From contig JAHFOF010000001.1 of NCBI GenBank assembly GCA_023266935.1, positions 27 through 64,026 on the forward strand: DNA of 64,000 nucleotides, read 5' to 3'. This document shows positions 4,145 to 63,963 of the stretch, in pieces (the first letter of the stretch is position 1; every line of letters begins with the position of its first letter). A program made the position numbers and the translations under genes. The notes under the pieces were generated by a model, which did not search any database, had not been told where the DNA came from, and saw only the letters and a list, made by a program, of their open reading frames with translations. The stretch is from a bacterium (GTDB lineage: Bacteria; Patescibacteriota; Minisyncoccia; Phycocordibacterales; Zambryskibacteraceae).

Positions 4145-4168
4145 TTTATTTATAGTGAGATTGTCGAA

Positions 4169-4702: not shown

Positions 4703-4729
4703 ATGTTTATTTATAGTGAGCCTGTCGAA

Positions 4730-5939: not shown

Positions 5940-5963
5940 TTTATTTATAGTGAGTTCATCGAA

Positions 5964-7429: not shown

Positions 7430-7467
7430 AGTATTTGATAATAATTATTTATAGTGAGCTTGTCGAA

Positions 7468-8541: not shown

Positions 8542-8883
8542 TTATTTTTTACTTTCAGTGGCACCCTTGGCTGCTTGAGCAGCACTGATTTCTGCTTCTT
8601 TTTTCTTTTGTTCGAGATCCTTCTGCATCTTACCTCCGTGTTTGGTGAACTTGCGAGTTAAAGAAAATTCACCGAGCCGGTGTCCAACCATATCCTCGGT
8701 GATAAATACTTCTATGTGATCTTTGCCGTTGTGTACTCCGAAGGTAAATCCGACCATTTCTGGAGCTATCTGGCATGCTCTGGACCAAGTCTTAATAACA
8801 CCGGTAGTACCGGGTTTCTTGCCCTCAATCTTTTTCAAGATTCGTGGGTCAACATATGGACCTTTTTTACTAGATCTGGTCAT
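8542..8883 (-). CDS. rpsS: 30S ribosomal protein S19 (C-terminal extension)
   Basis: S19 core GHRLGEF; lysine-rich C-terminal tail. Confidence 0.9.
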
Positions 8884-8918
8884 TAGAAATAAAGAAGCTC
8901 AAGACGAGCTGTCGAGAT

Positions 8919-8947
8919 ATAGTATAGAAATCAAGGCATATTGTCAA
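8919..8947 (-). promoter_or_regulatory. sigma70-like promoter for rpsS and downstream operon
   Basis: Minus strand reads TTGACA, 17-nt spacer, TACTAT; lies just downstream of a terminator hairpin and upstream of the rpsS ATG. Confidence 0.55.
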
Positions 8948-8956
8948 TAAATTCAA

Positions 8957-8982
8957 TGAAAAAGCCAGGAATGAATCCTGGC
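8957..8982 (-). terminator. rho-independent terminator after GC-rich gene 9010..9630
   Basis: Hairpin GCCAGGA-atgaa-TCCTGGC followed by a T-run on the minus strand. Confidence 0.6.
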
Positions 8983-9009
8983 TTTGGACTAGTACAGTCC
9001 CTTTTGTCG

Positions 9010-9630
9010 CTAGATCCCCTCGAGTTCCTCGAGAAGAACTGTCGCGATCCTCGCGTCTTCTTCTTCCTCAGCAATGAGCCGGTCGGTCTTGACGATTATC
9101 AACTCGCCCTTTCGTGTGACGAGAGCCCCCAACGGTTCGACGCCGGGCTGACGTTGAACCAGGTCAACACATACCAACCCATTCGGGTTCAGCCATGTGT
9201 GACAGGTCCAGACCGCGTCAGTCGCCAGAGTTCGAAGACCGGCTCGTGCCTCGATCGGAATCTCCGGCGCCGTCTCACCCTCAGCGAGCCGACGGTACTG
9301 AAGCACCGTTGCATGCCTGGTGGGCTTGCCCTGACAAACCAGATTGAAACTGTGCCCATCCACGAGATGCAGACCGTTCGCGGTGAGCCCAACTCGGAGC
9401 ATCGCCACCTGAATCTTCTGCATGTTGTTCATGGCCTGAACACCGCGTCCTACTCCGTTCTCGCGACGACGAGCAAGAAGTTCCTGCTCAGTTCTGCGCT
9501 CAATCGAGCGAATGCCCGGAGGAATTGATCTCAAACTCGGTGAAATGAATTTCACCGTGAGATCATCGATCATCCCAAGAGGAATGGGGTGGCTCTCGCC
9601 CGGTCGAGCCGAAGCGATTCGATCAAACAT
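9010..9630 (-). CDS. hypothetical protein; GC-rich (~58%), probable foreign origin
   Basis: 206-aa ORF; GC content far above surroundings; GGAGAG Shine-Dalgarno before the ATG; own promoter and terminator. Confidence 0.6.
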   Translation of the reverse strand: MFDRIASARPGESHPIPLGMIDDLTVKFISPSLRSIPPGIRSIERRTEQELLARRRENGVGRGVQAMNNMQKIQVAMLRVGLTANGLHLVDGHSFNLVCQGKPTRHATVLQYRRLAEGETAPEIPIEARAGLRTLATDAVWTCHTWLNPNGLVCVDLVQRQPGVEPLGALVTRKGELIIVKTDRLIAEEEEDARIATVLLEELEGI

Positions 9631-9703
9631 TTGATACTCTCCGTGGTGTTGAAGGGAAAAAGGAGACTTGGAACGAACACTGGATACTACTTATCTACTT
9701 TGT

Positions 9704-9732
9704 AGAGTAGCACACTTGATTTAAAAAGTCAA
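9704..9732 (-). promoter_or_regulatory. promoter/operator, copy 1 of duplicated element
   Basis: Minus strand TTGACT-TTTTAAATCAAGTGTGC-TACTCT; near-identical to the element at 10507..10535, including the downstream AAGTAGATA(A/G)G. Confidence 0.55.
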
Positions 9733-9750
9733 ATGGAGAATTTATTTATA

Positions 9751-9781
9751 TAAACAAAAGCCGCCCGATGTTTTGGGCGGC
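9751..9781 (-). terminator. rho-independent terminator after gene 9826..10449
   Basis: GCCGCCC-gatgtttt-GGGCGGC hairpin followed by TTTTGTTTAT on the minus strand. Confidence 0.6.
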
Positions 9782-9825
9782 CAGACTTTTAAGAAAAGTC
9801 TCTAACCTACTGCTCGCTGACTATA

Positions 9826-10449
9826 CTAGGCAGCGATGTCCTCGAGTTCCTTGGACAGGTCCTCAGCGAAACCTTCGTCCATCACCTGCTCCTGCAGAGC
9901 GACGACTTGCTTGACCTCGCTCTGAAGAGCAATGAGGTACTGATTGATCTCGTTGTAAGCCACAACGAGATCCTCGTAGGTGGCGTTCGACTTCGGGTCC
10001 AGAAGGTCGCGAAGCCGTGTCTGCAGAGAGAAAATCTCGTCGGCCTTGGCTTCCAGCACCTCCGGTGCCGTTTTTCGGATCACTTGCATCACGTTGTCCT
10101 GATGATCAAAGGTTCCTGAAAGGAACCCCTCGAACTTGTCATACAGCTCATCCGTGATGCTCTGCGCCATAGAAATGACGCGAAGGATCTGGCCGTCATC
10201 TGTCTTCTGCTTCGCTCGGACCTTGTCCACCTGCGCATTGCAGAACAGAACGAGCCTCTTGATGCTGTTGTCGGGGCCAGAGGGAAGCCGGAACCCGCCG
10301 AGCAACTTCAAGATGCCAAGGATGTACTTCATGTTCTTGATCGCGACGACGAGTTGCGCAAGCGGACGATCTTCCGGCTTTGGCTTGGACGTCTTTCCCC
10401 TACGGGTGATCCTTGCCTTCTTCTGATGTTTCTGCGCACTCGGGGTCAT
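9826..10449 (-). CDS. hypothetical protein; GC-rich; lysine-rich N-terminal tail and C-terminal coiled-coil
   Basis: 207-aa ORF; strong AGGAGG Shine-Dalgarno 5 nt before the ATG; GC ~58%. Confidence 0.6.
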   Translation of the reverse strand: MTPSAQKHQKKARITRRGKTSKPKPEDRPLAQLVVAIKNMKYILGILKLLGGFRLPSGPDNSIKRLVLFCNAQVDKVRAKQKTDDGQILRVISMAQSITDELYDKFEGFLSGTFDHQDNVMQVIRKTAPEVLEAKADEIFSLQTRLRDLLDPKSNATYEDLVVAYNEINQYLIALQSEVKQVVALQEQVMDEGFAEDLSKELEDIAA

Positions 10450-10506
10450 GATGCCCTCCTGGGCAATGTGTGTAGAGCGGTAGGCGTTTTTGCCTATCTA
10501 CTTACC

Positions 10507-10535
10507 ACGCTAGCACACTTGATGTAAAATGTCAA
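10507..10535 (-). promoter_or_regulatory. promoter/operator, copy 2 of duplicated element
   Basis: Minus strand TTGACA-TTTTACATCAAGTGTGC-TAGCGT. Confidence 0.55.
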
Positions 10536-10552
10536 GCATTTTATTAGACACA

Positions 10553-10615: not shown

Positions 10616-11305
10616 TTAATTCTTTCCACCCATTTCTCCACGAAGTCGTTCGATGAATCGGCCAGCTGCTTCCTGTCCCCCGAGACCAAATGAAAGGCCA
10701 AGAGCGAGAGAGATAGCAATCACTATACCAGTGAAGAGAGTTTGGCTGAATGCTGCTGCAATACCAAGCTGAGAAAGAGCGACGAGTACTGCGAAAATCC
10801 AAACTGCCCACTTGGCCAAAGTTCCTGCGAAATGCGCAGAACGAACTTCAGCAGTCTTTGCTGCAGTAACCACGATTCTTTCTGTGACATCACCCACAAC
10901 ACCTCCAACCAATAGGATGAGGGCTGCGACGATAACACGAGGAAGATACGCGATAACTACTTGTTGAAGGAAAAGGTTAACTTGTGTGAGGCCTAAGATA
11001 TCAAAGGCTGCCACAAGGAAAACCAATATCACAAACCACTTGACCAAACCACCGATGAAAGCACCTGAATCGAGATTTACTCCACCTCGTCTTAGGAAAC
11101 TCTCAAATCCTGCTCGGCGAAGTGCCTCGTCCACACGAAGTGAACGGAAAACTTGCCAGATTGCTCGGCCGAAGAGTGCACCGATAAGCCATCCGAGGAT
11201 GACGATGATAAGGGCGATAACAAGGTTCGGCACAAAGTTCACTACTCCCAACCAGAGATTCTGGAAAGAAAGAGTCAACACTTGTTGCCATGTGTTTAGA
11301 ATCAT
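10616..11305 (-). CDS. membrane protein with conserved TM-helix repeats (MscS-associated TM_helix type, no channel core)
   Basis: 229 aa; repeated hydrophobic helices with AxxLG/FG motifs resembling the pfam TM_helix repeat; no Shine-Dalgarno. Confidence 0.65.
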   Translation of the reverse strand: MILNTWQQVLTLSFQNLWLGVVNFVPNLVIALIIVILGWLIGALFGRAIWQVFRSLRVDEALRRAGFESFLRRGGVNLDSGAFIGGLVKWFVILVFLVAAFDILGLTQVNLFLQQVVIAYLPRVIVAALILLVGGVVGDVTERIVVTAAKTAEVRSAHFAGTLAKWAVWIFAVLVALSQLGIAAAFSQTLFTGIVIAISLALGLSFGLGGQEAAGRFIERLRGEMGGKN

Positions 11306-11428: not shown

Positions 11429-11989
11429 TTAAATGCCTAATTTATTGAGGATTTTGTGATTTTGAGAGTCTAGTATGTCTAAAATAAGCTTGTCATACAT
11501 CCCAAATCTATAGTGGAAATCTGCTGTTTCAAACGCGGCATAGCGAATCTCTTTACCTAATTCAGCTTCTATCCCTGAAATGGCTTTGGTAATCTTGGGT
11601 TTCTTCAAATGATCCCCTACTATTAAAAGATCCACTCGTGCTTCATTATCATGAAGAAAAATGCCTGAAACTAAAATAAGTTTTACTACTCCGACCTTTG
11701 CTAATCGTTTAACTATTTCTTTATCAGAAATGGGGCCTACATCAATTAGAAAATCTTGGAGAGGTTTAAGATGCGGATAATCTTTATTCAATGAATATCC
11801 TCGAGAACGCTTCTTTAAAAGTTTGGCTTTAATTAATTCGTTTAAACTTCTTCGAACAGTATTAGTTCTTTCTTTCGTACGATCAGTTACAGTTCTAAAC
11901 TCATAGGTGCTATCAGGATTAAAAACAAACATACGAATAATCTTCACCTTGGCCTCCCCTCCGAATATGCTAGATACTGATTTAGTCAT
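11429..11989 (-). CDS. hypothetical protein with N-terminal winged-helix (TrmB/MarR-like) domain
   Basis: 186 aa; N-terminal wHTH pattern; C-terminal domain unassigned. Confidence 0.55.
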   Translation of the reverse strand: MTKSVSSIFGGEAKVKIIRMFVFNPDSTYEFRTVTDRTKERTNTVRRSLNELIKAKLLKKRSRGYSLNKDYPHLKPLQDFLIDVGPISDKEIVKRLAKVGVVKLILVSGIFLHDNEARVDLLIVGDHLKKPKITKAISGIEAELGKEIRYAAFETADFHYRFGMYDKLILDILDSQNHKILNKLGI

Positions 11990-13282: not shown

Positions 13283-13564
13283 TCAGCGCTCTTTCTTGAG
13301 TCTAGAGGCGTGGAGTTTTTTGGGAAGTAACCTGCACACATTGGCAACTCCAGAAATAGCCCACGGAACTGCCACAATGCGATTGGTCACAACCCACCGA
13401 ATATAGACTGGTGACATTCCCACCATCCGATCAAATACGTCACGGTTATTGTGCTGAACAATCCTCTCACGAATGACTTGGAGAATCAGAACATTCTCCC
13501 TCTCTGCGTCATTCAACACTGTGCCGAAGAAGTTATCTGTCAGCACTCTCTTACCTTTGAGCAT
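13283..13564 (-). CDS. hypothetical small protein (93 aa) between rplB and rplJ
   Basis: ORF bounded by a terminator; no recognisable family; could be non-coding. Confidence 0.3.
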   Translation of the reverse strand: MLKGKRVLTDNFFGTVLNDAERENVLILQVIRERIVQHNNRDVFDRMVGMSPVYIRWVVTNRIVAVPWAISGVANVCRLLPKKLHASRLKKER

Positions 13565-14822: not shown

Positions 14823-14847
14823 GATTATTTATAGTGAGCTCATCGAA

Positions 14848-18010: not shown

Positions 18011-18045
18011 AAAGAAAAACCCGACTACCATTTGGTGTCGGGGTT
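18011..18045 (-). terminator. terminator of the ncRNA
   Basis: CCCGAC-accaaatggta-GTCGGG hairpin followed by TTTTTCTTTTTAT on the minus strand. Confidence 0.6.
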
Positions 18046-18420
18046 GCTTTGAAGCAAATGATTGAAACGAAAGAGCTCGCGTGAGCCCGGGGCGGCGACG
18101 GGTTGCGTACCGTCTACCGCGCCCGAGTCACGCTCCCGCGATGTGCCAAGCGCTTGGCCGACAACCACGGGGGTCGTACCAATGCCCTCTTGATTTTCGC
18201 TTTCTGCCTGGGGCCCGGGCTAAAGCTAGTTCCAATTTTTAACTACAATCACGAATGGGAGGTCTGGAACGAATGTTCCCTTTCCATCCGGCGGTACTGA
18301 TGCTTTTGGGGTTCTGCAGAACCCTACTAGGCTCCGCGATTCCTCTTTGGTTTGCTCCGCTTTTCTTTTGCTCGATGATCTTCGCTCAATTACACGGATG
18401 TCGAGCCACACCCGCTTCTA
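18046..18420 (-). ncRNA. unassigned structured, GC-rich non-coding RNA (~375-400 nt)
   Basis: Bounded by a TTGACA-16nt-TATTAT promoter (18427..18454) and a terminator (18011..18045), both on the minus strand; ~60% GC island in a 40% GC genome; no credible ORF. Confidence 0.45.
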
Positions 18421-18426
18421 TCTTCC

Positions 18427-18454
18427 ATAATACACCTTTCGGGTCTTTTGTCAA
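18427..18454 (-). promoter_or_regulatory. promoter of the ncRNA
   Basis: Minus strand TTGACA, 16-nt spacer, TATTAT. Confidence 0.55.
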
Positions 18455-18535: not shown

Positions 18536-18826
18536 TCATTGATTGTTAGTGACGAGGTCTCGAGATTCGTATTTGGTCTTACGAATGGGTTCAAGGAGAC
18601 TCACTGCCACAATCCTGAACTTTTTGTCTTTGGACCTGTAGAGTACGAGTTCGATTCTACAGCGAAACTTCGTTCGACCGTCGCTTGGTTGCATATCTGA
18701 GGCATGAGCAACCACGTACTTCGTCACCATCCCATGCAAATGAAGTACAGATTGCCAATGAAAGTTGTCTTGGCTCCTATCACGCTCGTATCGAAATACG
18801 AGCTCGATAATCTTGCCCTTTTTCAT
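18536..18826 (-). CDS. hypothetical protein (96 aa), weak RelE/ParE-like pattern
   Basis: Basic small protein; C-terminal motif FRCRIELVLYRSKDKKFRIVAV loosely resembles the RelE/ParE toxin core. Confidence 0.4.
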   Translation of the reverse strand: MKKGKIIELVFRYERDRSQDNFHWQSVLHLHGMVTKYVVAHASDMQPSDGRTKFRCRIELVLYRSKDKKFRIVAVSLLEPIRKTKYESRDLVTNNQ

Positions 18827-23243: not shown

Positions 23244-23270
23244 AAAATTATATATAGTGAGTTTATCGAA

Positions 23271-25538: not shown

Positions 25539-26141
25539 ATGATAAAACAATTTGAAGAAAAGAAATTTTCTATCCCAAAATTAAAAGGCATCTCAACGAA
25601 GATGATCGAGGAGCATCTAAAACTTTATGCTGGCTATGTGAAGAACACGAACCTGATTAACTCGATGATAGATATGTATTCTAAGGTGGATGATGAAGGG
25701 GGTAAATATTCTGTTTCAGAAATCACTCGTCGATTTTCTTTTGAATACAACGGGATGAGGAATCATGAGATTTATTTCTCTCATTTTGAAGGTGGACCAA
25801 AAGAGATTTCAAAAGATGGAGAACTGTATAAATCGATTGAATACATTTGGGGCTCATTCGATGTGTGGCTCACTCGATTTAAAACTATAGCCACCACTCG
25901 TGGAGTCGGTTGGGCGATTCTCTATTTTGATAAGAAAGAAAAAGTGCTCATAAACGCATGGGTAGATGAGCAACACCTCGGTCAACTCCAGAATTGTGAG
26001 GTGATTCTCGCTTTGGATATGTGGGAACATTCATTCGTCGCAGATTATCAACCTAGTGGCAAGAAAAATTATATTGAAGATTTCTTCGTTAATTTAAATT
26101 GGCAGACTTGTGAACATAACCTCGCAAACGCACTAAAATAA
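25539..26141 (+). CDS. Fe/Mn superoxide dismutase family protein (divergent)
   Basis: LDMWEHSFVADY matches SOD D-x-WEH-AYY; NHEIYFSHF matches NHTFYW; the first N-terminal His ligand appears replaced. Confidence 0.7.
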   Translation: MIKQFEEKKFSIPKLKGISTKMIEEHLKLYAGYVKNTNLINSMIDMYSKVDDEGGKYSVSEITRRFSFEYNGMRNHEIYFSHFEGGPKEISKDGELYKSIEYIWGSFDVWLTRFKTIATTRGVGWAILYFDKKEKVLINAWVDEQHLGQLQNCEVILALDMWEHSFVADYQPSGKKNYIEDFFVNLNWQTCEHNLANALK

Positions 26142-27660
26142 CTCCATAGAAAACATAAACCAATACCATTCCCCATATTGGGAACGAGGAAATTTTTAGA
26201 CTGGCCCAAGAAAGATTGCCGAGTATATGGGCCACGCCGAGTATCCAAGAGAGAAAAATGTGAGCAACAAGTGTGAATGGAAGCGAGATAATCGTTGAGA
26301 CATAGGAAAGAGTTGTAGAAACAAATCCAATGAGCATGGTGAATGGGACAAAGGCTAAAATCAAAATATTAGAAAGGAGAGAAACGACAGAAACACTACC
26401 CATACTGTATAAGAGAAACGGTAAAACAAATATTTGAGTAGAAATTGTGGCTGAAAGAATCTGTCTCATCCCCCACCTCTCTGTGATTTTAGTTAAATAT
26501 TTATCAACTACTGGAGAAACATAAATCATCGCGATAGTGGCGAGCATTGAAAGTTGAAACGATGGATCAAAAACTAAAATTTTAGGATTTTGAATAAGCA
26601 TCATAAATCCTGCGACGAGCAAAGCACGAGAAACAGAATAACTTCGCCCAAACATCTTGCCCGAGATAGCTATGAGAGCCATAATCCCCGCTCGAACGAT
26701 GGTCGCACTCGCGCCGGTCATCAAAACAAACAAAATGACACCGAAAATTGAAATACTCGAAGCGATTCGGAGAGAAAGAAAACTTAAAATCCTACGGAAA
26801 AATTCTGCGACTATCATAATGTTGTATCCAGAAAGAACTACAATATGAATCACTCCCGCGTTTTTGAATTCATCCAAAATAGATTTAGGCAAGGCCTGTT
26901 TACCTGAAACAAGTAACCCCGCGAGGAGAGATGCTTTGGGCTCTTCTAAAATACTCTTCATTTTAGCCACAAAACTACCTTTGACCCATAGTAGAGAGGA
27001 TATAATTGGATTCGCCTTGTTATATGAATCGATGCTAGTTTGAGCAAAACTCATCGTGTAATAAATATCATCTTTAGATAAATACTGCCCATAATCAAAA
27101 CTTCGCCCCGCATCACTATCAATTATTCCTGGCTTTTCTAATTTTCCTGAAATCCTTATTTCATCACCATATTTAATCTCTGAATATAAATCTGTACTGA
27201 CTAAAATTCTTTCTTTGCCCTCCGAAGCCTTGGCAAAGGTGGGTCGTTCAACCTCAATCACAAACCTCGTATCTTTTTCTCTTTTCTCTGGTTCAGTCAC
27301 GACTACACCATTTAAATTTATTTTTGTACCAACGCTTTGTTCAAACTCTGCATCAACTTCATGAAAATCCTTTATATCAAAACGTAAAATCCCAAAACTA
27401 AAAGCGACTAGTCCTAAAATTATTATAAAAACTAATTTTGATACATTTTTATTCCAGATTTTTTCTGAAAAATAAATACCGAGGGAAATAATAAAAAATA
27501 AAAGCGACCAAATCGGTCGTATTTGAATAATCGATGAAACAAAGATTCCAAAAATAAAACTCCAAATGAAAACAAAGATGCTTAAATGCTTATGCTCGTA
27601 AAGAAATTTTATATTCGTGCTTGGGTCCATTGTACAAATATGGTTTGGCTCCATCAGCAA
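26089..27660 (-). CDS. comEC: ComEC/Rec2 DNA-uptake channel, membrane domain only
   Basis: N-terminal DUF4131-like region and competence polytopic domain; no fused MBL domain (encoded separately at 24634..25509). Confidence 0.8.
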   Translation of the reverse strand: MLMEPNHICTMDPSTNIKFLYEHKHLSIFVFIWSFIFGIFVSSIIQIRPIWSLLFFIISLGIYFSEKIWNKNVSKLVFIIILGLVAFSFGILRFDIKDFHEVDAEFEQSVGTKINLNGVVVTEPEKREKDTRFVIEVERPTFAKASEGKERILVSTDLYSEIKYGDEIRISGKLEKPGIIDSDAGRSFDYGQYLSKDDIYYTMSFAQTSIDSYNKANPIISSLLWVKGSFVAKMKSILEEPKASLLAGLLVSGKQALPKSILDEFKNAGVIHIVVLSGYNIMIVAEFFRRILSFLSLRIASSISIFGVILFVLMTGASATIVRAGIMALIAISGKMFGRSYSVSRALLVAGFMMLIQNPKILVFDPSFQLSMLATIAMIYVSPVVDKYLTKITERWGMRQILSATISTQIFVLPFLLYSMGSVSVVSLLSNILILAFVPFTMLIGFVSTTLSYVSTIISLPFTLVAHIFLSWILGVAHILGNLSWASLKISSFPIWGMVLVYVFYGVILVRLRGYVHKSANLN

Positions 27661-28069
27661 AGCTGGTGGCTATCTCATCACACCTCTCGTTCGCTTGAAC
27701 ACCCGCGTGACCTTCAACCAAGCTCCAATGAATCTTTTTATCCACGCTCGCTTCATACAAATCCATCCATAAATCTTTGTTCTCTACTGGTTTCTTTTGA
27801 CTTGTGCGCCAATTATTTTTCATCCAACCATGTATCCATTCGGTGATACCCTTCACCACATAAGTCGCATCAGAATACAGAGTGACTTCCACACCTACAG
27901 GCAACGATTCTAGGGCTTTAATACAGGCCATAAGCTCCATTTTATTATTCGTCGTGTGTTCGTCTCGACCCCCTATTTCTTTCACCTCATCACCATGCTG
28001 AATAACCGCCCCCCAGCCTCCGGGTCCAGGATTCCCTTTCGAAGATCCGTCTGTGAAGATAATTATCAT
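27590..28069 (-). CDS. rnhA: ribonuclease HI
   Basis: TDGS...E...D...HxGxxxNExxD catalytic pattern; ATG overlaps the RT stop (TAATG). Confidence 0.9.
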   Translation of the reverse strand: MIIIFTDGSSKGNPGPGGWGAVIQHGDEVKEIGGRDEHTTNNKMELMACIKALESLPVGVEVTLYSDATYVVKGITEWIHGWMKNNWRTSQKKPVENKDLWMDLYEASVDKKIHWSLVEGHAGVQANERCDEIATSFADGAKPYLYNGPKHEYKISLRA

Positions 28070-29049
28070 TATGAAAGTATATCATTAACTAATTTTGTAA
28101 TTTTATAAGCATCTCCGTGCTTAAGTAATCCTAAATAAGACTCAATGGTTTCCGGCTTAACATCTTCTTTCTTCAGATTCTTAAACATCCTCTTCTTAGT
28201 CGAAGTCCTCAATACTCTGTGGTTAAAAAAGTTCACCCAACCCAGAAAATCCACTCCTGAAGCAAGAGTTTTAATAAAAACCTTATCCGGGTGCAGTTGT
28301 AGTTTTAATTTATTATTTAAAAATTTATTTATTTCCACCAACAAATTCTCCAAATATTTCTTATCTTGAGACATAGTCACAAAATCATCGGCATATCGAA
28401 TATAATATTTCACCTTTAATTTATGCTTCAGATATTGATCAAATTCATTCATATGGATATTCACTAGAAGTTGAGAGGTTAAATTTCCTAATGGTAGGCC
28501 TGTATTTTCCTTTTCTGAACTAAAGCTTCTAATGATTCTTTCCAAAAGCCAGATGGTGTCTAGGTCTTTAATATGTTTCCTCAATATGGTTAGGAGTATT
28601 CGATGATCAATACTGGCAAAGAATTTCCTGATGTCACACTTCAGAATCCAACATTGCTTAGTATTATTTTTGGATACTTTATGTCCAAATACTCTAAATC
28701 TGTTTATCGCTCTATGTGTTCCTTTGTTTAGTCTGCAGGAATATGAATCATGGATAAACTTTTTGTCGAAATATGGATACAAAACTCTATATAAGCAATG
28801 ATGAAGTAATCTGTCTCGGACTAAAGCTTTGTGAATATTTCTTGGTTTTGGGTCTGAGATATTGAAGGCGTGGTAGGAGCTATGGATATAGGATTTATTT
28901 ACTAAATCTTCATGTAGTTGGAAGATGTTTGAAGAAAGGTTGTCAGCAAACAACATTACATCTTTTCTTTTGCGTTTACCTTTTAAAAACTCCCGCCAAG
29001 CATCCAATAGATTTTCGATTGATATGATATTCTCATACATATGTATCAA
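28069..29049 (-). CDS. diversity-generating retroelement reverse transcriptase
   Basis: LPLGNLTSQ (DGR-specific motif 4) and YIRYADDFV (YxDD); 326 aa; adjacent TR/VR pair. Confidence 0.9.
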   Translation of the reverse strand: MIHMYENIISIENLLDAWREFLKGKRKRKDVMLFADNLSSNIFQLHEDLVNKSYIHSSYHAFNISDPKPRNIHKALVRDRLLHHCLYRVLYPYFDKKFIHDSYSCRLNKGTHRAINRFRVFGHKVSKNNTKQCWILKCDIRKFFASIDHRILLTILRKHIKDLDTIWLLERIIRSFSSEKENTGLPLGNLTSQLLVNIHMNEFDQYLKHKLKVKYYIRYADDFVTMSQDKKYLENLLVEINKFLNNKLKLQLHPDKVFIKTLASGVDFLGWVNFFNHRVLRTSTKKRMFKNLKKEDVKPETIESYLGLLKHGDAYKITKLVNDILS

Positions 29050-29431
29050 TCTAATACTATCAGTACCCCCCCCCGCAAAAGTACCTGCGGTACTTTTTAG
29101 AACAAAAAATATATATTCAATTTGGTTAAATCTTTATAGAAAATTTCCTAAACCGGAGCGATTTGGTATCGGTGAAAAAATAGATATTTTGTTTCTTGAT
29201 ATTCTAGAACTCGTTTTTATATTTAAATTTGCCAAATTATTCGAGAAAATTTCATATACAGAATCAATTATTTTAATAATAGATAAATTAAAATTTTTTA
29301 TGGAAGTTGCTTGGGAGAATAAACTGATTTCAAGCAAGCAGTATAGTGAAATTCTGATAAAACTCGAAGAAATCGGAAAAGAGTTTGGTGGATGGAGAAA
29401 ATCATTAACAAAAACTCCTACCTTTCGATAG
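29024..29431 (+). CDS. Avd-like four-helix-bundle accessory protein (start uncertain)
   Basis: FPKPERFGIG...EEIGKEFGGWRKSL matches the Avd/23S-IVS four-helix-bundle family pattern (FPKEERYGL...EIGKML.GLIKSL); unusually on the opposite strand to the RT. Confidence 0.5.
   Translation: MIFSYICINLILSVPPPAKVPAVLFRTKNIYSIWLNLYRKFPKPERFGIGEKIDILFLDILELVFIFKFAKLFEKISYTESIILIIDKLKFFMEVAWENKLISSKQYSEILIKLEEIGKEFGGWRKSLTKTPTFR
29066..29074. repeat. homopolymeric C(9)/G(9) tract
   Basis: Nine consecutive C on the plus strand, between the RT start and inside the putative avd 5' region; followed by the hairpin at 29077..29097. Confidence 0.8.
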
Positions 29432-29449
29432 GAGAAACTACAATAGTAA

Positions 29450-29562
29450 CGAGAAACCACATGGTTGTCTGCATTCCACCTGTTCGGATTCTCGACGGAG
29501 TTCGCGTTCAAGTTCCAACCGTCGTTGTTGGCGTTCCAGTTCGCGTTCACAGCCCAGAGTCG
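29450..29562 (-). repeat. DGR template repeat (TR)
   Basis: 113 bp homologous to 29824..29936; every one of 21 mismatches is a minus-strand A in this copy. Confidence 0.88.
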
Positions 29563-29785
29563 TTTCGTGTGAGAAACCATCTATGCCACCATCCCTTGAA
29601 TACTCTCGGGGTTGAATTTTATTCGGCATCATAATGCCAGAGTATCTCACACCAACTATTTTTGTTTTTTGGTCGAAAAAATATCGACACTATCTGCCAC
29701 CCCAAACCTTGGTCGGGAATGCCAGCAGACTTGTTTTTATTATATATGAAAATGGGCACCCTTTCGGAATGCCCATTCGTCCATC

Positions 29786-29804
29786 ATCCCGCCCATGGCG
29801 GGAT
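29786..29804 (-). promoter_or_regulatory. GC hairpin flanking the VR 3' end
   Basis: ATCCCGCC-cat-GGCGGGAT, 8-bp stem, immediately after the target stop codon. Confidence 0.5.
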
Positions 29805-29816
29805 TTCAAGGGAACA

Positions 29817-30365
29817 TCAGTTGCGAGAAACCACACGGTCGCCCGCACCCCACCCGTGCGGATTCCCGACGGAGTTCGCGCGCAAGCCCCAACCGTCGCG
29901 GCCGGCGCTCCAGTCCGCGCGCACAGCCCAGAGTCGACCATCCTTACCACGAAGGTAAAAGATGAACCACTCGGTGCTCCCGCGGTTGTCCGCAAGGAAC
30001 TGCTTGAATTGGGATACCGATGTTTCCGCCTTGTCCCCCAGCTCGGTGAGGATGGGAGCATCGAGTGACGACTGCTCGAGCTTCCTTACAGCAAGCTCGG
30101 CCACATCGGTGACGGGAACTTCGAGGCCAAGGAACTGGCTCTCAAAATTGTTCCCGAACCACTTGGCCCCAGCTTCTGCAAAATACTGCTTCGAGGTGGT
30201 GACTGCCGGTTGGGCAGGCATCCTCACCGTGCGGAGAAGGGTGAGGAGGGTCTTGAAGACGATCTCGCCCTGACCACCGATAAAGCGAAGGAAGTTCTCC
30301 CAACCGCCCATACGGTTGATGCAAGCTTCCGTCTGCCCAGCGGTTACATCGTTGTACTTGGCCAT
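29817..30365 (-). CDS. DGR target protein (variable C-terminus)
   Basis: 182 aa; GC-rich; GGGGAG Shine-Dalgarno; last ~40 codons (RLWAVRADWSAGRDGWGLRANSVGNPHGWGAGDRVVSRN) overlie the VR; the TR-frame translation has Asn at the varied positions. Confidence 0.8.
   Translation of the reverse strand: MAKYNDVTAGQTEACINRMGGWENFLRFIGGQGEIVFKTLLTLLRTVRMPAQPAVTTSKQYFAEAGAKWFGNNFESQFLGLEVPVTDVAELAVRKLEQSSLDAPILTELGDKAETSVSQFKQFLADNRGSTEWFIFYLRGKDGRLWAVRADWSAGRDGWGLRANSVGNPHGWGAGDRVVSRN
29824..29936 (-). repeat. DGR variable repeat (VR)
   Basis: Copy with G or C where the TR has A (minus strand); lies inside the 3' end of the target gene. Confidence 0.88.
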
Positions 30366-37489: not shown

Positions 37490-37933
37490 TTGTCTTCACG
37501 TGAAACATTTAACTATTTGTTATTCATGAAACTAGATAATCGCACCGAAAAACGAAAATTGGGCGATATTGGCGAAAACATCGCTTGTGATTATTTGATT
37601 AGACACGGATTTGAAGTTATAGAAAGAAACTATCTTAGAAAATGGGGGGAACTAGATATTATAGCTAAAAAGAAGGGGACTATTCGTTTTGTGGAGGTAA
37701 AATCAGTTTCATGTGCAACTTTACCAAATAATGTTACTCATGTAACAGATAACTACCGTCCTGAAGAAAATGTTCATCCACAGAAGTTAAAAAGATTATC
37801 CAGAGCCATTCAAACTTATATACTCGAAAAACGTTTGGATAATGTGGATTGGCAATTAGACATCATCACGGTAAAAATCGATCAGACTAACAGAAAAGCA
37901 AGAGTTGAGATGCTTGAAAACATTATCATCTAG
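37490..37933 (+). CDS. yraN: YraN-family (UPF0102) endonuclease
   Basis: GE.IA..YL...G..I..RN.R...GE.DII motif; true start probably an internal Met. Confidence 0.75.
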   Translation: MSSRETFNYLLFMKLDNRTEKRKLGDIGENIACDYLIRHGFEVIERNYLRKWGELDIIAKKKGTIRFVEVKSVSCATLPNNVTHVTDNYRPEENVHPQKLKRLSRAIQTYILEKRLDNVDWQLDIITVKIDQTNRKARVEMLENIII

Positions 37934-37996
37934 GTGCCCCTGGCAGGAATCGAACCCACATCACTTGTTCCGAAGACAAGTACTTTATCCATTAAG
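37923..37996 (-). tRNA. tRNA-Arg (anticodon TCG)
   Basis: Cloverleaf on the minus strand: acceptor GCCCCTG/CAGGGGC, anticodon loop CTTCGGA, T-loop TTCGATT; 3' CC encoded. Confidence 0.8.
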
Positions 37997-38023
37997 CTAC
38001 AGGGGCATGCCTCGCCAACAGGC

Positions 38024-38096
38024 TACGGCCGAGGGTGCGACCAGGGAGAATCGAACTCCCATCTCATCCTTGGCAAGGACGTGTTCTACCACTAAA
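38024..38096 (-). tRNA. tRNA-Gly (anticodon GCC)
   Basis: Acceptor GCGACCA/TGGTCGC, anticodon loop TTGCCAA, T-loop TTCGATT. Confidence 0.8.
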
Positions 38097-38201
38097 CCAT
38101 GGTCGCGAACTAAATGATAATAACTTATATCGCTCAAAAAATCGAGTATTAATCGAGTGAAATTGGTAATTAGTTTTCCTCGTGTTAGGATACTTATCTA
38201 G

Positions 38202-38272
38202 CGGGCTGTATTATAGAGGTATTATTCACGATTCGGGTTCGTGGGACCCGGGTTCGATTCCCGGCAGCCCGA
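38202..38272 (+). tRNA. tRNA-Pro (anticodon CGG)
   Basis: C1:G72 acceptor (CGGGCTG/CAGCCCG), A73, anticodon loop TTCGGGT with G37, T-arm CCGGG-TTCGATT-CCCGG; D-arm atypical. Confidence 0.6.
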
Positions 38273-38288
38273 AAGTGAATAGGACAAA

Positions 38289-38359
38289 CGGGGCGTAGTA
38301 TAGTGGTAGTATACTTGCTTTGGGAGCATGTGGTCCGAGTTCGATTCTCGGCGCCCCGA
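38289..38359 (+). tRNA. tRNA-Pro (anticodon TGG)
   Basis: C1:G72 acceptor (CGGGGCG/CGCCCCG), A73, anticodon loop TTTGGGA with G37, T-loop TTCGATT. Confidence 0.6.
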
Positions 38360-38371
38360 AAGAATACCAAT

Positions 38372-38442
38372 GCGGGATTAGTTTAGTGGTAAAACGACAG
38401 TTTTCCAAACTGTAGTCGGGAGTCCGATTCCCCCATCCCGCA
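38372..38442 (+). tRNA. tRNA-Gly (anticodon TCC)
   Basis: Acceptor GCGGGAT/ATCCCGC, D-arm GTTT-AGTGGTA-AAAC, anticodon stem ACAGT/ACTGT, loop TTTCCAA. Confidence 0.65.
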
Positions 38443-38476
38443 CAAAATTTCTTGTGCGTACCGTATACTAAATACA

Positions 38477-53777: not shown

Positions 53778-53801
53778 TTCAACATATTCATTATAAATAA
53801 C

Positions 53802-55675: not shown

Positions 55676-56464
55676 ATGTCGCGTCTGCAACTCAAACTTG
55701 CGATTCTTATTTCTGTTGTTCTGATCGGTGGAGCAACTGCTAATAGATTAATAAACTCTACTAAGGAGGCATCGAACCTGATAGCTCTAAAAAACACGGG
55801 TTCTGTTCAAAACAACGATACTTCTTTGCAAGACATCTCGCCGGCATATTCCACTTCTACTCCTTCTAGTATAAAAACAGAAACCTTAACCCAAACCGAC
55901 CTCATCGGTCGTCAATTGTTTTCTGATTATTTAAGTTTGTCTTCGAGTGGCCAGGCTACAGACGATAATATCAACGCCTTGGCTGGCTCATACGCAGAAA
56001 ATCTTTCTAACCTTAGTACTATAGCTGACATCTCAACCGACAAAATCACTCCAGAAGAAGACACGGTTGATAATCTTAGCGCTTACGGAGACTCCGTCAT
56101 CGCCATACACACAAAATATCAAAATCTCGCTTCTGCTCTTTCTACCAAAGGTGTCTCCGACATTAAAAGCGTGGCTTTTGTCTCTTTCGCCAATTCGATG
56201 AGTAGTTTGTACAGTCGAGCAGCATCAGAACTTTTGTTATTAAAGGTGCCTGCCTCTTTAGTCGAAAATCATGTGGCTCTTGTAAATAATTATTTATCTA
56301 GTGCCGACGCAGCGAAAACTTTAAGCACAATTTCAAAAGATCCTGCTGGAGCATACTCTGCACTCGTCACTCAACAAAAAAATTCTCAAGAAGAAATAGC
56401 TTTGTTCGAAAATATTCATCGAACTCTTATGTCTAATGGTATAATTACTAACAGCGGAACATGA
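55676..56464 (+). CDS. membrane-anchored hypothetical protein
   Basis: N-terminal TM; first gene of the plus-strand block leading into the secretion-like cluster. Confidence 0.45.
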   Translation: MSRLQLKLAILISVVLIGGATANRLINSTKEASNLIALKNTGSVQNNDTSLQDISPAYSTSTPSSIKTETLTQTDLIGRQLFSDYLSLSSSGQATDDNINALAGSYAENLSNLSTIADISTDKITPEEDTVDNLSAYGDSVIAIHTKYQNLASALSTKGVSDIKSVAFVSFANSMSSLYSRAASELLLLKVPASLVENHVALVNNYLSSADAAKTLSTISKDPAGAYSALVTQQKNSQEEIALFENIHRTLMSNGIITNSGT

Positions 56465-58197
56465 TTACGCGATGCAATATTTTTTTAGTTATTCCTCTCC
56501 TTGCGGTGTTTTTAATGCCGATACGAACACATGCCTTTGTGACAGAAGCTGCATGGGCAGCCCTTACAGCAACCCAGGCTTCATCAAATCTTTTTGTCCC
56601 AACAGTTAGCCCAACCCAAGATGTGAAGAATGTTGGTATAAAGTTCTGGGGATTAACCTTCCCCCCACTTGACCAAATAGCCATAGATATAGCCAAATTT
56701 GCCATAGAAAAGATAGTTGATTCAACAATCAATTGGATAAATACAGGAGCAGATGGAGGGCCGATATATGTTACTGATTCTCAACAATATTTTAAACAAC
56801 TTGGGGATGGTTATGCTGGTGAATTTATTCAAAAAGTGGTTGGAGCAGGGAATCTTTGTGCTCCATTTCAAGCTCAAATAGTGCTTTCTCTTAAACATTA
56901 CTATGCTCCGACCTATACACCTCAATGTACCTTCACTGGTATACAAAACAATCTAGAAAATTTTTATAATCATTTTTCAGAAGGCGGATGGCAAGGTTGG
57001 CTTTCGATGACCCAAGACAATGCGAACAATCCATATGGTTCATACATGGATGCAAAGATTTTGTTGGATACCAATTTACAAAACAAACTCGACCTGGCAG
57101 GGAAAAAACTTGATTGGAGCAGTGGATTCAAAAGCAAAGGCGACTGTCTTAAGACAAATCATTGGCCTCCCAACGAATTGCTGATTCAATATGAAAACGG
57201 AGAAATTAGTAACTATCCCGCACCATATAACGACACCGACTATTACAGTGAAGCCTACCCAGATGGCGCTTGTTTAAAATATGGCCCAGACAAAACTCCT
57301 GGAGTGGTCATAAAAGATACCCTTAATAAAGTTCTACCTTCTGGTTTTGATCAGCTTGTAAATGCTAAACAATTTGATGACCTTGTTAGCTCTTTGATGA
57401 GTACTGTGCTTCAAAAATATGTTTTTGGTTCAAAAGGACTGTTCACCACCAGTCCTGGAAAAGTGAGCGGGGGAGGAACCACCGTTGGTGGAGGGACAGC
57501 ATCAACTCAGTCGCCAGTAACTTGCGGAGTTTCTGTTCAAAAAGCGACAGTTGGAATAGATAGTGTAAATTGGATTGCCAACAGCACATTTGGTGGTGCT
57601 ACTACTTATTCTTGGTCTGGAGATGAAATACCAAATGGATCAGAGGGGTTGAACGTCTCCGTTGTTTATAAAACACCTGGGACAAAAAAAGCCAGTGTCA
57701 CAGCAACTAACATTGGTGTTGATGCTGAAGGTAACCCTGATCCAAGCACCCAGAAAACCGTCACCGCCACTTGTAGCAGTAGTGTTTTAGTCGCTCAATA
57801 TCAACCTCTCAACGTTTCTTGTAGTGTGGGTGTGGCTCATGCTCAGAAAGGAGAAAACGTTACTTGGACGGCCACGATTAGTGGTGGCTCAGGAGAATTT
57901 CTTCTCCAAAACACCATTTCGGCTCTCGACGGCATTAATGTAAATGTGCCTGTTTTATGGGATGGGGATGAAGCTTCGTATCCAAAAACAGACATCGCGA
58001 TGTATCCACGAATAAATGCCAATCAAGTTATTTCAAAAAATGGAAATGTAATCACCTCAAAGATAATTCGTTCTTATACAGACGATAAAAAGATTCCTGG
58101 AGCAAAAAGTGCGAAGGTGACAATCATAGACAAAGACCCGATGGTTGATCCTGTGGTAGGAAAGGCTTGTGATAATTCTGTCTATATCACCAACTAG
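56461..58197 (+). CDS. large secreted protein with PKD-like repeats
   Basis: Signal peptide; repeated TxxxTATN..G PKD-like segments. Confidence 0.5.
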   Translation: MITRCNIFLVIPLLAVFLMPIRTHAFVTEAAWAALTATQASSNLFVPTVSPTQDVKNVGIKFWGLTFPPLDQIAIDIAKFAIEKIVDSTINWINTGADGGPIYVTDSQQYFKQLGDGYAGEFIQKVVGAGNLCAPFQAQIVLSLKHYYAPTYTPQCTFTGIQNNLENFYNHFSEGGWQGWLSMTQDNANNPYGSYMDAKILLDTNLQNKLDLAGKKLDWSSGFKSKGDCLKTNHWPPNELLIQYENGEISNYPAPYNDTDYYSEAYPDGACLKYGPDKTPGVVIKDTLNKVLPSGFDQLVNAKQFDDLVSSLMSTVLQKYVFGSKGLFTTSPGKVSGGGTTVGGGTASTQSPVTCGVSVQKATVGIDSVNWIANSTFGGATTYSWSGDEIPNGSEGLNVSVVYKTPGTKKASVTATNIGVDAEGNPDPSTQKTVTATCSSSVLVAQYQPLNVSCSVGVAHAQKGENVTWTATISGGSGEFLLQNTISALDGINVNVPVLWDGDEASYPKTDIAMYPRINANQVISKNGNVITSKIIRSYTDDKKIPGAKSAKVTIIDKDPMVDPVVGKACDNSVYITN

Positions 58198-62055: not shown

Positions 62056-62079
62056 TTCGACAAGCTCACCATAAATAAT

Positions 62080-63963
62080 ATGAGTATATTTGATAAATTA
62101 TTAGGAAGGGAAGAGAAGAAACCAGACATCGCTTCTATCTTGCCCCAAGAAATATTCGAAGCGGGTGTTTTGGAGTTGAAAGACATTATCGCCCCGAGCG
62201 CCTTGTCCGTTTCTCCAAAAGAAATCAACCTTGGAGAAAAGGTTCTCCGCAGTTTCTTCGTCATTTCTTATCCGAGGTTTCTTTCTGAGAGTTGGTTTGC
62301 TCCGATTATTAATATGGATAAAGTTTTTGATGTTTCTATCTTCGTCCACCCAGTTGAAACTTCAAAAGTCCTTAGACAATTTCAAAAAAAGGTTGCCGAA
62401 GTTCAAAGCCAAATTCACACCAGAGAAGAAAAAGGCCTCGTACGTGATCCGATGCTCGATGTAGCCTATCAAGATCTCGAAAATCTTCGTGATCAACTTC
62501 AACAAGCTCAGGAAAAACTTTTTGATGTTGGTTTATACATCACTATCTATGCAGATAACGACGCTGAATTAGACAAAGTAGAAACGGAAATAAAATCAAT
62601 CCTCGATGCGAAGTTGGTTTATATCAAACCGGCCCTCTTTCAACAAGAACAAGGTTTTCAAAGCACTCTTCCTCTCGGAAACGATCTCCTCGAGGTTCAT
62701 TCAAAACTAAATTCATCGCCCCTCTCATCACTCTTCCCATTTACTTCATTCGACCTCACTAGTGATAAGGGAATTCTATACGGTATAAATAGACACAACT
62801 CGTCTCTGGTTCTCTTCGATCGATTCTCTCTAGAAAACTACAACTCAGTGATGTTTGCCAAGGCGGGTGCAGGAAAATCTTATGCCACCAAACTCGAAAT
62901 TCTCCGCACACTAATGTTTGATACAGATGTTATCGTGATAGACCCAGAAAGAGAATATGAATATATGGCCGAGGCCACGGGTGGAAGGTATTTTAAAATT
63001 TCTCTTAACTCTGAACATCACATCAATCCATTTGACCTCGCCCCTCCCGCAGAAGGGGAATCGGCCGCAAATGTCCTCCGTTCAAACATCATTAACCTCG
63101 TAGGTCTTTTCCGTTTGATGATGGGAGGATTAACGGCAGAAGAAGATGCAATTATCGACCGAGCCATCACCGAGACATATGCCCTGAAAGACATCACTGC
63201 TGATTCTGATTTTAAAACGATTGAACCACCTTTGATGTCAGACTTTGAACTCGTGCTCTCTGGACTCGAGGGTGGAGAATCTTTGGCTCAAAGATTAACT
63301 AAGTACACAAAGGGAACTTGGGCTGGTTTTATAAACAAACCAACAAATGTAGATATAAACAGAAAATTTATTGTCTTCTCTCTTCGAGACATGGAAGATG
63401 AATTGAAACCTATCGCAATGTACATCGTCACTCACTATATTTGGAATGCTATAAGAAAGGAGCTGAAAAAAAGATTGCTCGTGATAGATGAAGCTTGGTG
63501 GATGATGAAAACAGACGACACGGCGTCTTTTTTAATGGGTCTAGTTAAACGCGGGAGAAAATACTACCTCGGAGTAGCCACAATAACCCAAGATGTGAAC
63601 GACTTCTTAAAATCTCCGTATGGATTACCAATTATCACAAACTCTTCGATTCAAATACTCCTCAAACAATCTCCGACAATTATAGATAGCCTACAAAAAA
63701 CTTTTAACCTCACGGATGAAGAAAAATACCTCCTCCTCGAATCAGATGTGGGGGAGGGAATATTCTTCGCTGGATTAAAACATGTGGCTATTAAGAACAT
63801 CGCTTCATACACCGAAGACCAAATCATCACCTCCGATCCATCCCAAGTACTCGCGATGAAAAAAGCTCGTCAAGAGCTTGAAGCAGAAAAAGAAGTGCCC
63901 GCTGTGCCTCCTAATCCGATAAATAATGCCGAACCAAACCCAACAACCACAACAGGGCAGTAG
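62080..63963 (+). CDS. VirB4/TraE-family type IV secretion ATPase
   Basis: Walker A AKAGAGKSYAT; Walker B LLVIDEAWWMM (DEAW); 627 aa. Confidence 0.8.
   Translation: MSIFDKLLGREEKKPDIASILPQEIFEAGVLELKDIIAPSALSVSPKEINLGEKVLRSFFVISYPRFLSESWFAPIINMDKVFDVSIFVHPVETSKVLRQFQKKVAEVQSQIHTREEKGLVRDPMLDVAYQDLENLRDQLQQAQEKLFDVGLYITIYADNDAELDKVETEIKSILDAKLVYIKPALFQQEQGFQSTLPLGNDLLEVHSKLNSSPLSSLFPFTSFDLTSDKGILYGINRHNSSLVLFDRFSLENYNSVMFAKAGAGKSYATKLEILRTLMFDTDVIVIDPEREYEYMAEATGGRYFKISLNSEHHINPFDLAPPAEGESAANVLRSNIINLVGLFRLMMGGLTAEEDAIIDRAITETYALKDITADSDFKTIEPPLMSDFELVLSGLEGGESLAQRLTKYTKGTWAGFINKPTNVDINRKFIVFSLRDMEDELKPIAMYIVTHYIWNAIRKELKKRLLVIDEAWWMMKTDDTASFLMGLVKRGRKYYLGVATITQDVNDFLKSPYGLPIITNSSIQILLKQSPTIIDSLQKTFNLTDEEKYLLLESDVGEGIFFAGLKHVAIKNIASYTEDQIITSDPSQVLAMKKARQELEAEKEVPAVPPNPINNAEPNPTTTTGQ

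Follow-up and report, generated by a model that had tools for sequence, protein, structure and literature searches.

Two GC-rich, Shine-Dalgarno-led genes in a Saccharibacteria-type ribosomal-protein array occupy a probable slot for exchangeable expression cassettes

A 64,000-nucleotide stretch of contig JAHFOF010000001.1 (assembly GCA_023266935.1), hereafter referred to as the window, carries two small GC-rich genes, herein gene 1 and gene 2, that are lodged in an array of ribosomal-protein genes. A preliminary description of this DNA had regarded them as a horizontally acquired, co-regulated two-component module. The interpretation we favour, with moderate confidence, is that they occupy a hypervariable, clade-wide site of self-contained cassettes that encode fast-evolving soluble factors, a site akin to the minimal mobile elements (MMEs) of Neisseria. 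Each gene forms a separate expression cassette comprising a promoter of a dedicated class, usually a hairpin leader, a Shine-Dalgarno (SD) site, a GC-rich open reading frame (ORF) and an intrinsic terminator, and close relatives differ by gain, loss, inversion and replacement of such cassettes, probably through homologous recombination. All coordinates given here are window positions unless preceded by a locus identifier (L001 to L021), and those of the principal features are collected in Table 1.

The S10 ribosomal-protein array of the window is broken between rplB and rpsS by an insert consisting of a 93-amino acid (aa) ORF, rplJ-rplL, a gene for a 186-aa winged-helix-like protein, an MscS-like gene, gene 2 and gene 1. 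Rather than lying near rpoB, rplJ-rplL (encoding L10 and L7/L12; 12061-12950, minus strand) are found between rplB and rpsS, an order that is kept in related Saccharibacteria contigs. The slot is flanked upstream by the MscS-like gene, whose composition is native, and downstream by rpsS. Between these flanks we found only two ORFs, both on the minus strand and with the boundaries originally given for them, and no integrase, transposase, Pfam match, inverted terminal or att-like repeat, or adjacent tRNA. A profile search extended the gene 1 family from the two relatives returned by a first search to 14 members (alignment A3). For gene 2, where the first search had returned none, 1.84 billion representatives were scanned exhaustively with HMMER, which gave a family of 22 members (alignment A5). 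Nearly every family member whose contig was examined resides in the same slot, in the order L10-L12-186aa-MscS-like-[gene2][gene1]-S19, and this order recurs in independent contigs from ENA, JGI, Logan and NCBI, with a reverse-strand truD situated between the cassettes and rpsS in some lineages. The ratio of non-synonymous to synonymous substitution (dN/dS) was 0.10 for a close pair and 0.2-0.5 for saturated pairs which, along with confident AlphaFold2 models, indicates that both ORFs are real genes.

The content of the slot varies among genomes whose flanking genes are nearly identical. By its ribosomal proteins, L012 is the closest relative of the window (S3 96%, S19 95% and the MscS-like protein 97% identical), but the two share only 46% identity in gene 1 and 29% in gene 2; L012 and L009, by comparison, are 82% identical in S3 and 67% in gene 1. 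Comparison of L016 with L012 localised one such change. Synonymous divergence (dS) between the tails of their MscS-like genes is 0.07, and nucleotide identity of 96.8% continues to the -35/spacer region of the gene 2 promoter, where similarity is lost, to return at 85.6% just ahead of the gene 1 promoter; the gene 1 products that follow are 96% identical, with a dS of 0.26. The intervening gene 2 alleles encode 200 aa in L016 and 291 aa in L012 and are 31% identical over 121 residues, while the L016 allele is 50% identical to gene 2 of the window. These alignments indicate that exactly one cassette was exchanged between L016 and L012, with junctions at the promoter repeats. Over 43 nt, the gene 1 promoter of L016 and its gene 2 counterpart in L012 align at 84%, and the promoter repeats therefore provide interchangeable homology. 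As read from these sequences, crossover points lie within the conserved flanks and within the promoter repeats that delimit each cassette. In one assembly of the L012-type genome (L006 6859-8000), the 291-aa gene 2 is uncalled; the gene call there is instead a 130-aa ORF in a different frame, with a 750-nt gap after it, which could reflect a frameshift or a difference in assembly or gene calling.

The two genes are also separable. Gene 1 occurs alone in L001/L005 and L014, whereas L021 has gene 2 without gene 1; the ORF after it, which is unrelated, GC-rich and 45 aa long, has a promoter, an SD site and a terminator in the same format. In L019 gene 2 is probably alone, the next ORF being AT-rich and cut by the contig end, and in L020 gene 2 is inverted. 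Because each gene is found without the other, the pair is not an obligate two-component module as first proposed; each has its own promoter and terminator, and alleles of gene 1 and gene 2 assort independently.

Smaller cassettes were identified in other spacers of the ribosomal and elongation factor array, at 13283-13564 of the window (minus strand, between rplB and rplJ), L001 236-493 (after rplL) and L005 594-1214 (between fusA and tuf), as well as within the slot itself at approximately L021 2319-2456. These units are SD-led, have their own promoter and usually a terminator, and differ in content between relatives. They are also GC-richer than their neighbours, with GC content at third codon positions (GC3) of 0.52 for the 93-aa ORF of the window and 0.67-0.85 in relatives.

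The shared upstream region that had been noted from the sequence is a 41-nt direct repeat (80% identity between copies), one copy of which precedes each cassette of the window. A search with the 25-nt core of this repeat, TTGACWTTTTAMATCAAGTGTGCTA, returned these two sites and no further match in the 64 kb (0.00 expected by chance). Within the repeat lies a promoter of the form TTGACW-N13-TGTGCTA, and all cassette promoters fit cTTGACw, 12-14 nt, TRTGMTA, a pattern composed of a -35 box, an extended -10 of the TRTG type and a degenerate -10, TAnnnT. This pattern occurs only at the two cassettes of the window (0.06 expected by chance), and in 21 examined loci it was found exclusively ahead of members of the two families, with the single exception of a site in the fusA-tuf spacer of L005, ahead of a distinct 206-aa ORF that is likewise GC-rich and SD-led. 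Native promoters, exemplified by that of rpsS, lack the TG element and have a 17-nt spacer. As the promoter class is limited to such cassettes across approximately 250 kb of window and related loci, common control of both genes is plausible. The common operator that had been proposed fared less well, since the palindrome TTGA-N9-TCAA is present in both window copies but is kept in only 3-4 of approximately 19 orthologous promoters, and the shared sequence consists mostly of the -35 box and the TRTG extended -10. Promoter pairs within a genome are 0.64-0.67 identical (four genomes) compared to 0.49±0.09 between genomes, which is suggestive of concerted evolution, though the within-genome values lie inside the between-genome range (maximum 0.72).

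Downstream of the promoter, leaders often open with a GGC...GCC hairpin that exhibits compensatory changes. Such a hairpin is usual in cassettes and is present ahead of gene 2, but not gene 1, of the window. It is not specific to cassettes, as native leaders such as that of rpsS also begin with a hairpin, and no Rfam match was found in the cassette region. A GATAG element lies a few bases past the -10 of gene 2, of the 93-aa GC-rich ORF at 13283-13564 and of a GC-rich region near 18.2-18.45 kb (three sites compared to 0.05 expected), and these units may be further members of the same regulon. The last of them belongs to a stretch of approximately 390 nt at about 18030-18454 (minus strand) that is GC-rich, has no long ORF on its strand, and is preceded by a TTGACA...TATTAT promoter with GATAG and followed by a terminator. 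It is predicted to fold stably, at -141 kcal/mol, a figure without a shuffle control. Rfam gave no match at a cut-off as loose as E<=1, the L005 relative contains nothing similar to it, and we consider it a candidate non-coding RNA. Next to it, in the fusA-tuf spacer, a 96-aa ORF (18536-18826, minus strand) has a GC3 of 0.52 compared to 0.34 for native genes, its own terminator, a weak SD-like score of -3.5 kcal/mol and no Pfam match.

The translation signals of the cassettes also set them apart from native genes. Strong SD sites precede both start codons, as first described, and their predicted duplexes with the anti-SD sequence have energies of -7.0 kcal/mol for gene 1 and -10.8 kcal/mol for gene 2. 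In a scan of 73 genes of the window the median native gene scored -1.0 kcal/mol, which bears out for most of them the earlier remark that native genes lack SD sites; both cassette genes were in the top eight, with gene 2 ranking second. SD sites are kept in nearly all orthologous cassettes and are missing from most native genes. Each gene also ends in its own hairpin terminator, one detected by a terminator scan and the other read from the sequence.

The GC content of gene 1 and gene 2 is 0.57 and 0.55, respectively, in a window of 40.8% GC, slightly below the value of approximately 58% initially given for them. Their GC3 values of 0.61 (z = 6.2) and 0.74 (z = 9.2) depart strongly from a native mean of 0.340±0.043 (n=64), and in every contig examined slot genes have a GC3 of 0.58-0.89 compared to 0.30-0.55 for flanking genes. 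Codon choice is reversed relative to native genes (AAG 88% versus 33%, CAG 83% versus 29%, CCG 60% versus 8%); ATC makes up 57-87% in cassette genes versus 34% in native genes, and TTA is never used. The amino acid composition of the cassette genes is native-like, which rules it out as the source of the GC excess and makes the shift synonymous, and since GC content is 37-42% in the promoter, leader and terminator sequence that separates the ORFs, the shift is limited to the ORFs. The codon usage check proposed in the preliminary description thus revealed a deviation that is strong, synonymous and ORF-limited. Because dS between orthologues is saturated (>1.3), the GC excess is not the un-ameliorated remnant of a single old transfer. 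Biased gene conversion linked to recombination was unsupported, as the half of the MscS-like gene next to the cassettes shows no GC3 gradient, and the GC3 of S19 is raised uniformly and not just near the cassettes. In every genome examined, GC-rich codons together with an SD site are a lasting hallmark of these cassettes, as opposed to a signal of recent transfer that is being eroded. SD-led initiation may be required because the GC-rich 5' coding regions would be structured, unlike AU-rich native starts. A cluster of five tRNA genes at 37933-38443, on both strands (Arg-TCG, Gly-GCC, Pro-CGG, Pro-TGG and Gly-TCC), includes a tRNA-Pro(CGG) that reads CCG, the proline codon that is preferred by the cassettes and rare in native genes.

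A cassette-like codon pattern was also found in the target gene of a complete diversity-generating retroelement (DGR) at 27590-30365 (minus strand, with Avd on the plus strand), whose reverse transcriptase gene is 32% GC. As the target is GC-rich and its reverse transcriptase AT-rich, composition is a property of gene class and not of imported blocks of DNA. The template repeat (TR) and variable region (VR) of this element differ by 25 mismatches, 22 of them at TR adenines; 21 of these are in the adenine-mutagenised stretch and one is among the last four mismatches, where the copies diverge past the stop codon. Genes 1 and 2 are not themselves DGR targets, as a scan of both window strands with the TR matched only its own VR.

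Searches covering 5.8 billion and 1.84 billion proteins found members of both families exclusively in Saccharibacteria-type contigs, and a search of one genome each of 185,579 species returned nothing related except one Saccharibacteria metagenome-assembled genome. There was no match to gene 1 in IMG/VR, and none in phage and plasmid collections. The initial impression that neither protein belongs to a recognisable family held throughout. Both proteins and all family members gave only chance-level matches in Pfam, PHROGs, PADLOC and NCBIfam (EAD11, Phage_VG64, RDF, DUF499), sequence-profile searches of the PDB returned nothing for gene 1 and only matches with E >= 0.12 for gene 2, and the predicted folds had no match in the PDB or BFVD. 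AlphaFold2 modelled the gene 1 product as a beta-rich alpha+beta domain (predicted local distance difference test, pLDDT, 81; predicted template modelling score, pTM, 0.80) and the gene 2 product as a helical bundle with a disordered basic tail and a 49-residue final helix (residues 158-206; pLDDT 89.5). Invariant residues of the gene 1 family, namely H93, H144 and an HxWxNPNG motif, may on our conjecture form an active or binding site. The charged ends that had been remarked upon were confirmed, with a net charge of -7 over 20 aa in the C-terminal helix of gene 1 and +8 over 35 aa in the tail of gene 2, which is N-terminal and becomes K/A-rich repeats in variants of 260-290 aa. Neither product has a transmembrane segment or signal-peptide-like stretch.

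The only resemblance between the two families is at their C-termini, which read E-E-E-D-x-x-I-A-x-x-L-L-x-E-L-x-S-L-R-V-A in the gene 1 family and A-x-x-L-L-x-E-L-x-x-L-x-V-A in the gene 2 family. In a comparison of the two alignments using hhalign, 24 C-terminal columns were the sole local match (E 0.02), and paralogy of the genes was rejected as there is no similarity beyond them. A loose form of the motif is present in 9/11 gene 1 and 12/21 gene 2 family members compared to 2/71 other proteins of the window, and the coding ends of gene 1 (..EELEGI) and gene 2 (..KELEDI) are identical at 15 of 17 nt (88%). The simplest reading is that this shared acidic amphipathic peptide serves a common partner, which could involve mutual binding, one adaptor or one export machine. 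The peptide would in this way dock both products to one partner or export route, and they might act together, or through that partner, in interactions with a host bacterium or phage, although we hold this part of the proposal at low confidence.

Among known systems, the slot most closely recalls the Neisseria MMEs which, as quoted in PMC3787668, are regions between specific conserved genes that vary in composition and gene content among close relatives and that, once DNA has been taken up by transformation, are swapped through homologous recombination of the flanking sequence. As in MMEs, the flanks (the MscS-like gene and rpsS) are conserved while the content between them is compositionally deviant and differs among the closest relatives (L016 versus L012); the slot is devoid of mobility genes and other self-mobilising machinery, the junctions of whole-cassette replacement lie in conserved sequence, and a competence gene is present in the window. 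This gene encodes a ComEC-type protein (26089-27660, minus strand), and DNA uptake by natural transformation probably drives the exchange. Unlike MMEs, the cassettes carry a dedicated promoter class, SD and terminator, with the promoter repeat acting as an internal junction, the slot is filled from the same two orphan families throughout the clade, with a uniformly GC-rich composition in all lineages, and the organism is an epibiont of the Candidate Phyla Radiation (CPR) in which the site is inside a ribosomal-protein gene array. Relative to MMEs, we regard as new the promoter-class boundary, the two recurring orphan families, the synonymous, ORF-limited GC excess with its SD use, and the ribosomal-array site, and we found no description in the literature of such GC-rich swappable slot cassettes.

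Two further systems offer partial parallels. Integron cassettes are likewise tandem, single-ORF, exchangeable units at one chromosomal site with repeat-marked boundaries. They are usually promoterless, whereas the slot cassettes have their own promoters; moreover, there is no integrase nearby and no attC-type imperfect inverted repeat at the slot, and exchange looks homologous rather than site-specific. In Bacteroidetes the anti-SD sequence is sequestered and the few SD-led genes are specially regulated. The cassettes resemble the SD-bearing minority of such SD-poor bacteria in that they are a small distinct set with strong SD sites amongst native genes that mostly have none, but differ from that of Bacteroidetes in that the SD class here is set apart by its codon usage and promoter type as well.

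Several observations weigh against our interpretation. Clean replacement was mapped only once, between L016 and L012, and the other evidence for exchange is mostly discordant divergence, which rate variation could partly mimic. A divergent subfamily (L010/L011) is located outside the ribosomal slot, beside truD; divergent members in L013 and L015 also neighbour truD, and in all of these the ribosomal genes are out of view. Cassettes resident over the long term would require some selective or biased process to keep their GC content high. The C-terminal resemblance covers few residues and its statistical support is modest; neither family, fold nor neighbourhood gives a clue to what either protein does, and a role in dealings with host or phage is proposed from fast evolution and allele turnover alone.

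The alternatives to an exchangeable cassette slot were each judged unlikely, to differing degrees. It is possible, though we give it only limited credence, that the proteins are exported effectors whose C-terminal peptide is a secretion signal, for instance for a type IV secretion system (T4SS), and that they act on or in the host bacterium. One C-terminal motif on two unrelated folds would suit this, as would the lack of a Sec signal or transmembrane segment and the presence in the window of a VirB4/TraG-like T4SS-type ATPase (62080-63963, plus strand), and fast evolution with allele exchange would fit an arms race. T4SS substrates carry a C-terminal translocation signal that a coupling protein recognises, and the peptide may bear a likeness to known signals of this kind. 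However, the gene 2 motif lies in a long helix that AlphaFold2 folds confidently rather than in a free tail, and the motif is absent from some family members (P0002, P0015). Any link between the peptide and the ATPase is speculation. The large ORFs just upstream of the ATPase (56461-60343) have no Pfam match.

Somewhat more doubtful is a two-gene defence module, of toxin-antitoxin, abortive-infection or another type, in which neither product works without the other. The genes are adjacent, small, fast-evolving and variably present, and share a promoter type, as in defence hotspots, and the neighbouring 186-aa protein (11429-11989, minus strand) has a full-length match (E 2.5e-14) to the PADLOC candidate PDC-M05A. 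Yet neither cassette product matches PADLOC, Pfam or PHROGs, and where a type II toxin-antitoxin or similar pair would be co-transcribed, co-occurring and recognised by a profile, we found separate transcription units with their own terminators, each gene on its own in some genomes, and independent assortment of alleles. The gene for the 186-aa protein, which may be a winged-helix regulator, is conserved and native in composition and hence not part of the variable unit, and no partner component of PDC-M05A was detected for it.

A recent foreign island, in which the pair came as a module from a high-GC donor such as an actinobacterial host or its phage and is not yet ameliorated, we consider improbable. 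Such an origin would account for the strong GC3 and codon deviation and for SD sites, promoters and terminators unlike those of native genes, and Saccharibacteria live on high-GC Actinobacteria (PMC9297842). Against it, the same slot is occupied in many relatives that have the same GC excess at saturated synonymous divergence, no donor or homologue outside Saccharibacteria-type contigs emerged from the protein, species-genome, IMG/VR, phage or plasmid searches, the non-coding parts of the cassettes are AT-rich, and no integrase, transposase, flanking tRNA or att-like repeat accompanies them. The comparison with genomic islets and xenologs is similarly divided: the cassettes share with them the strong GC3 and codon deviation (z = 6-9) and foreign-looking translation signals but, unlike them, are syntenic throughout the clade and deviate only within ORFs and despite saturated dS, with no donor lineage detected. 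A recently transferred island should be absent from relatives or located at other sites in them, and should match a donor, and we observed neither. The preliminary description had itself named homologues in native, non-mobile contexts as an outcome that would tell against acquisition; this is largely what we found, although the deviation in GC and codon usage that it had also put in question holds when computed. Our comparisons indicate that the horizontal element consists of allele exchange within the clade, not foreign import.

Equally improbable, in our view, is a housekeeping function particular to the lineage, in the ribosome, the translation apparatus or the nucleoid, that would explain the place of the genes among those for ribosomal proteins. 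The conserved position between rplL and rpsS, the strong promoter and SD, and the resemblance of the Lys/Arg-rich tail of gene 2 to nucleic-acid-binding proteins would all accord with such a role. On the other hand, the genes turn over quickly (29-51% identity where S3 is 78-96% identical), they are lost or replaced in close relatives, genomes with only gene 1 or only gene 2 suggest that they are dispensable, and their codon usage is opposite to that of ribosomal-protein genes. We attach very little weight to the further idea that the cassettes are written in the dialect of a high-GC, SD-using actinobacterial host and delivered to it as DNA via the type IV system encoded in the window for expression there, like the T-DNA of Agrobacterium, in which case the G/C-ending codons, strong SD and TGn-TAnnnT promoter would be features of that dialect; in a milder version, the SD and GC-rich codons would define a separately controlled translation class in an otherwise SD-less cell. 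Finally, a chimeric assembly or binning error could produce a sharp compositional break such as the one seen here, but is practically discounted by the same arrangement in independent assemblies from different samples and pipelines, by breaks that coincide with ORF ends, and by the native-type AT-rich promoters and terminators between the ORFs.

Table 1. Positions of the slot genes, their signals and flanks, and of the DGR elsewhere in the window.
Feature	Position	Strand	Details
Gene 1	9010..9630	minus	206 aa; ORF and family membership
Gene 2	9826..10449	minus	207 aa; ORF, exhaustive HMMER search and alignments
Gene 1 promoter repeat	9692..9732	minus	-35 TTGACT (9732-9727), TGTGC extended -10, -10 TACTCT (9709-9704), then AAGTAGATAAG
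Gene 2 promoter repeat	10495..10535	minus	-35 TTGACA (10535-10530), TGTGC extended -10, -10 TAGCGT (10512-10507), then AAGTAGATAGG
Gene 2 5' leader hairpin	downstream of gene 2 promoter	minus	TAGGC-aaaaac-GCCTA
Gene 1 SD site	9637..9642	minus	GGAGAG, 6 nt 5' of ATG
Gene 2 SD site	10455..10460	minus	AGGAGG, 5 nt 5' of ATG
Gene 1 intrinsic terminator	8959..8985	minus	GCCAGGA-ttcat-TCCTGGC then TTTTT; read from sequence
Gene 2 intrinsic terminator	9759..9782	minus	GGCCGCCC...GGGCGGC then T-run; terminator scan
Coding end of gene 1 C-terminal motif (..EELEGI)	9013..9029	minus	17-nt direct repeat, partner 9835-9851
MscS-like membrane protein, upstream flank of slot	10616..11305	minus	Pfam MS_channel_1st_1, NCBIfam msc
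rpsS (S19), downstream flank of slot	8542..8947 including promoter; gene 8542-8883	minus	Pfam
rpsS promoter	8919-8947	minus	TTGACA-N17-TATACT; promoter scan; kept in relatives
DGR target gene	29817-30365	minus	182 aa, GC3 0.72
DGR VR	29814-29936		TR 29440-29562
DGR bAvd-like gene	28925-29431	plus	
DGR reverse transcriptase	28069-29049	minus	32% GC
DGR RNase H gene	27590-28069	minus	

Elsewhere in the window, the motif CTCACTATAAATAA recurs on the minus strand at 4146-4159, 4707-4720, 5941-5954, 7445-7458, 14825-14838 and 23248-23261 and on the plus strand at 53787-53800 and 62065-62078, giving 8 matches at <=2 mismatches compared to 0.74 expected. Often preceded by TTCGAyrA, it ends 1-4 nt 5' of the start codon, in the place of an SD site, in the genes for L18, L6, L5, L23 and S7 and those at 53802 and 62080, while the copy at 7445-7458 ends approximately 9 nt before the start of S3. 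Its role may be to support initiation or re-initiation of translation without an SD site.

Saccharibacteria live as obligate epibionts and have tiny genomes; their genes for dealing with hosts and phages are largely uncharacterised. The locus described here offers two lineage-restricted families that share a C-terminal peptide and whose folds, predicted with confidence, are unmatched; a dedicated promoter class by which a set of accessory cassettes can be recognised; and a clear case of whole-cassette replacement within a ribosomal-protein gene array. It also poses an evolutionary puzzle, as a synonymous, ORF-limited GC excess has been kept in every lineage amid AT-rich native genes that lack SD sites. 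If selection on expression explains this excess, the cassettes would reveal that CPR bacteria have a second regime of translation; were a hidden gene pool responsible, they would point to an unsampled reservoir.

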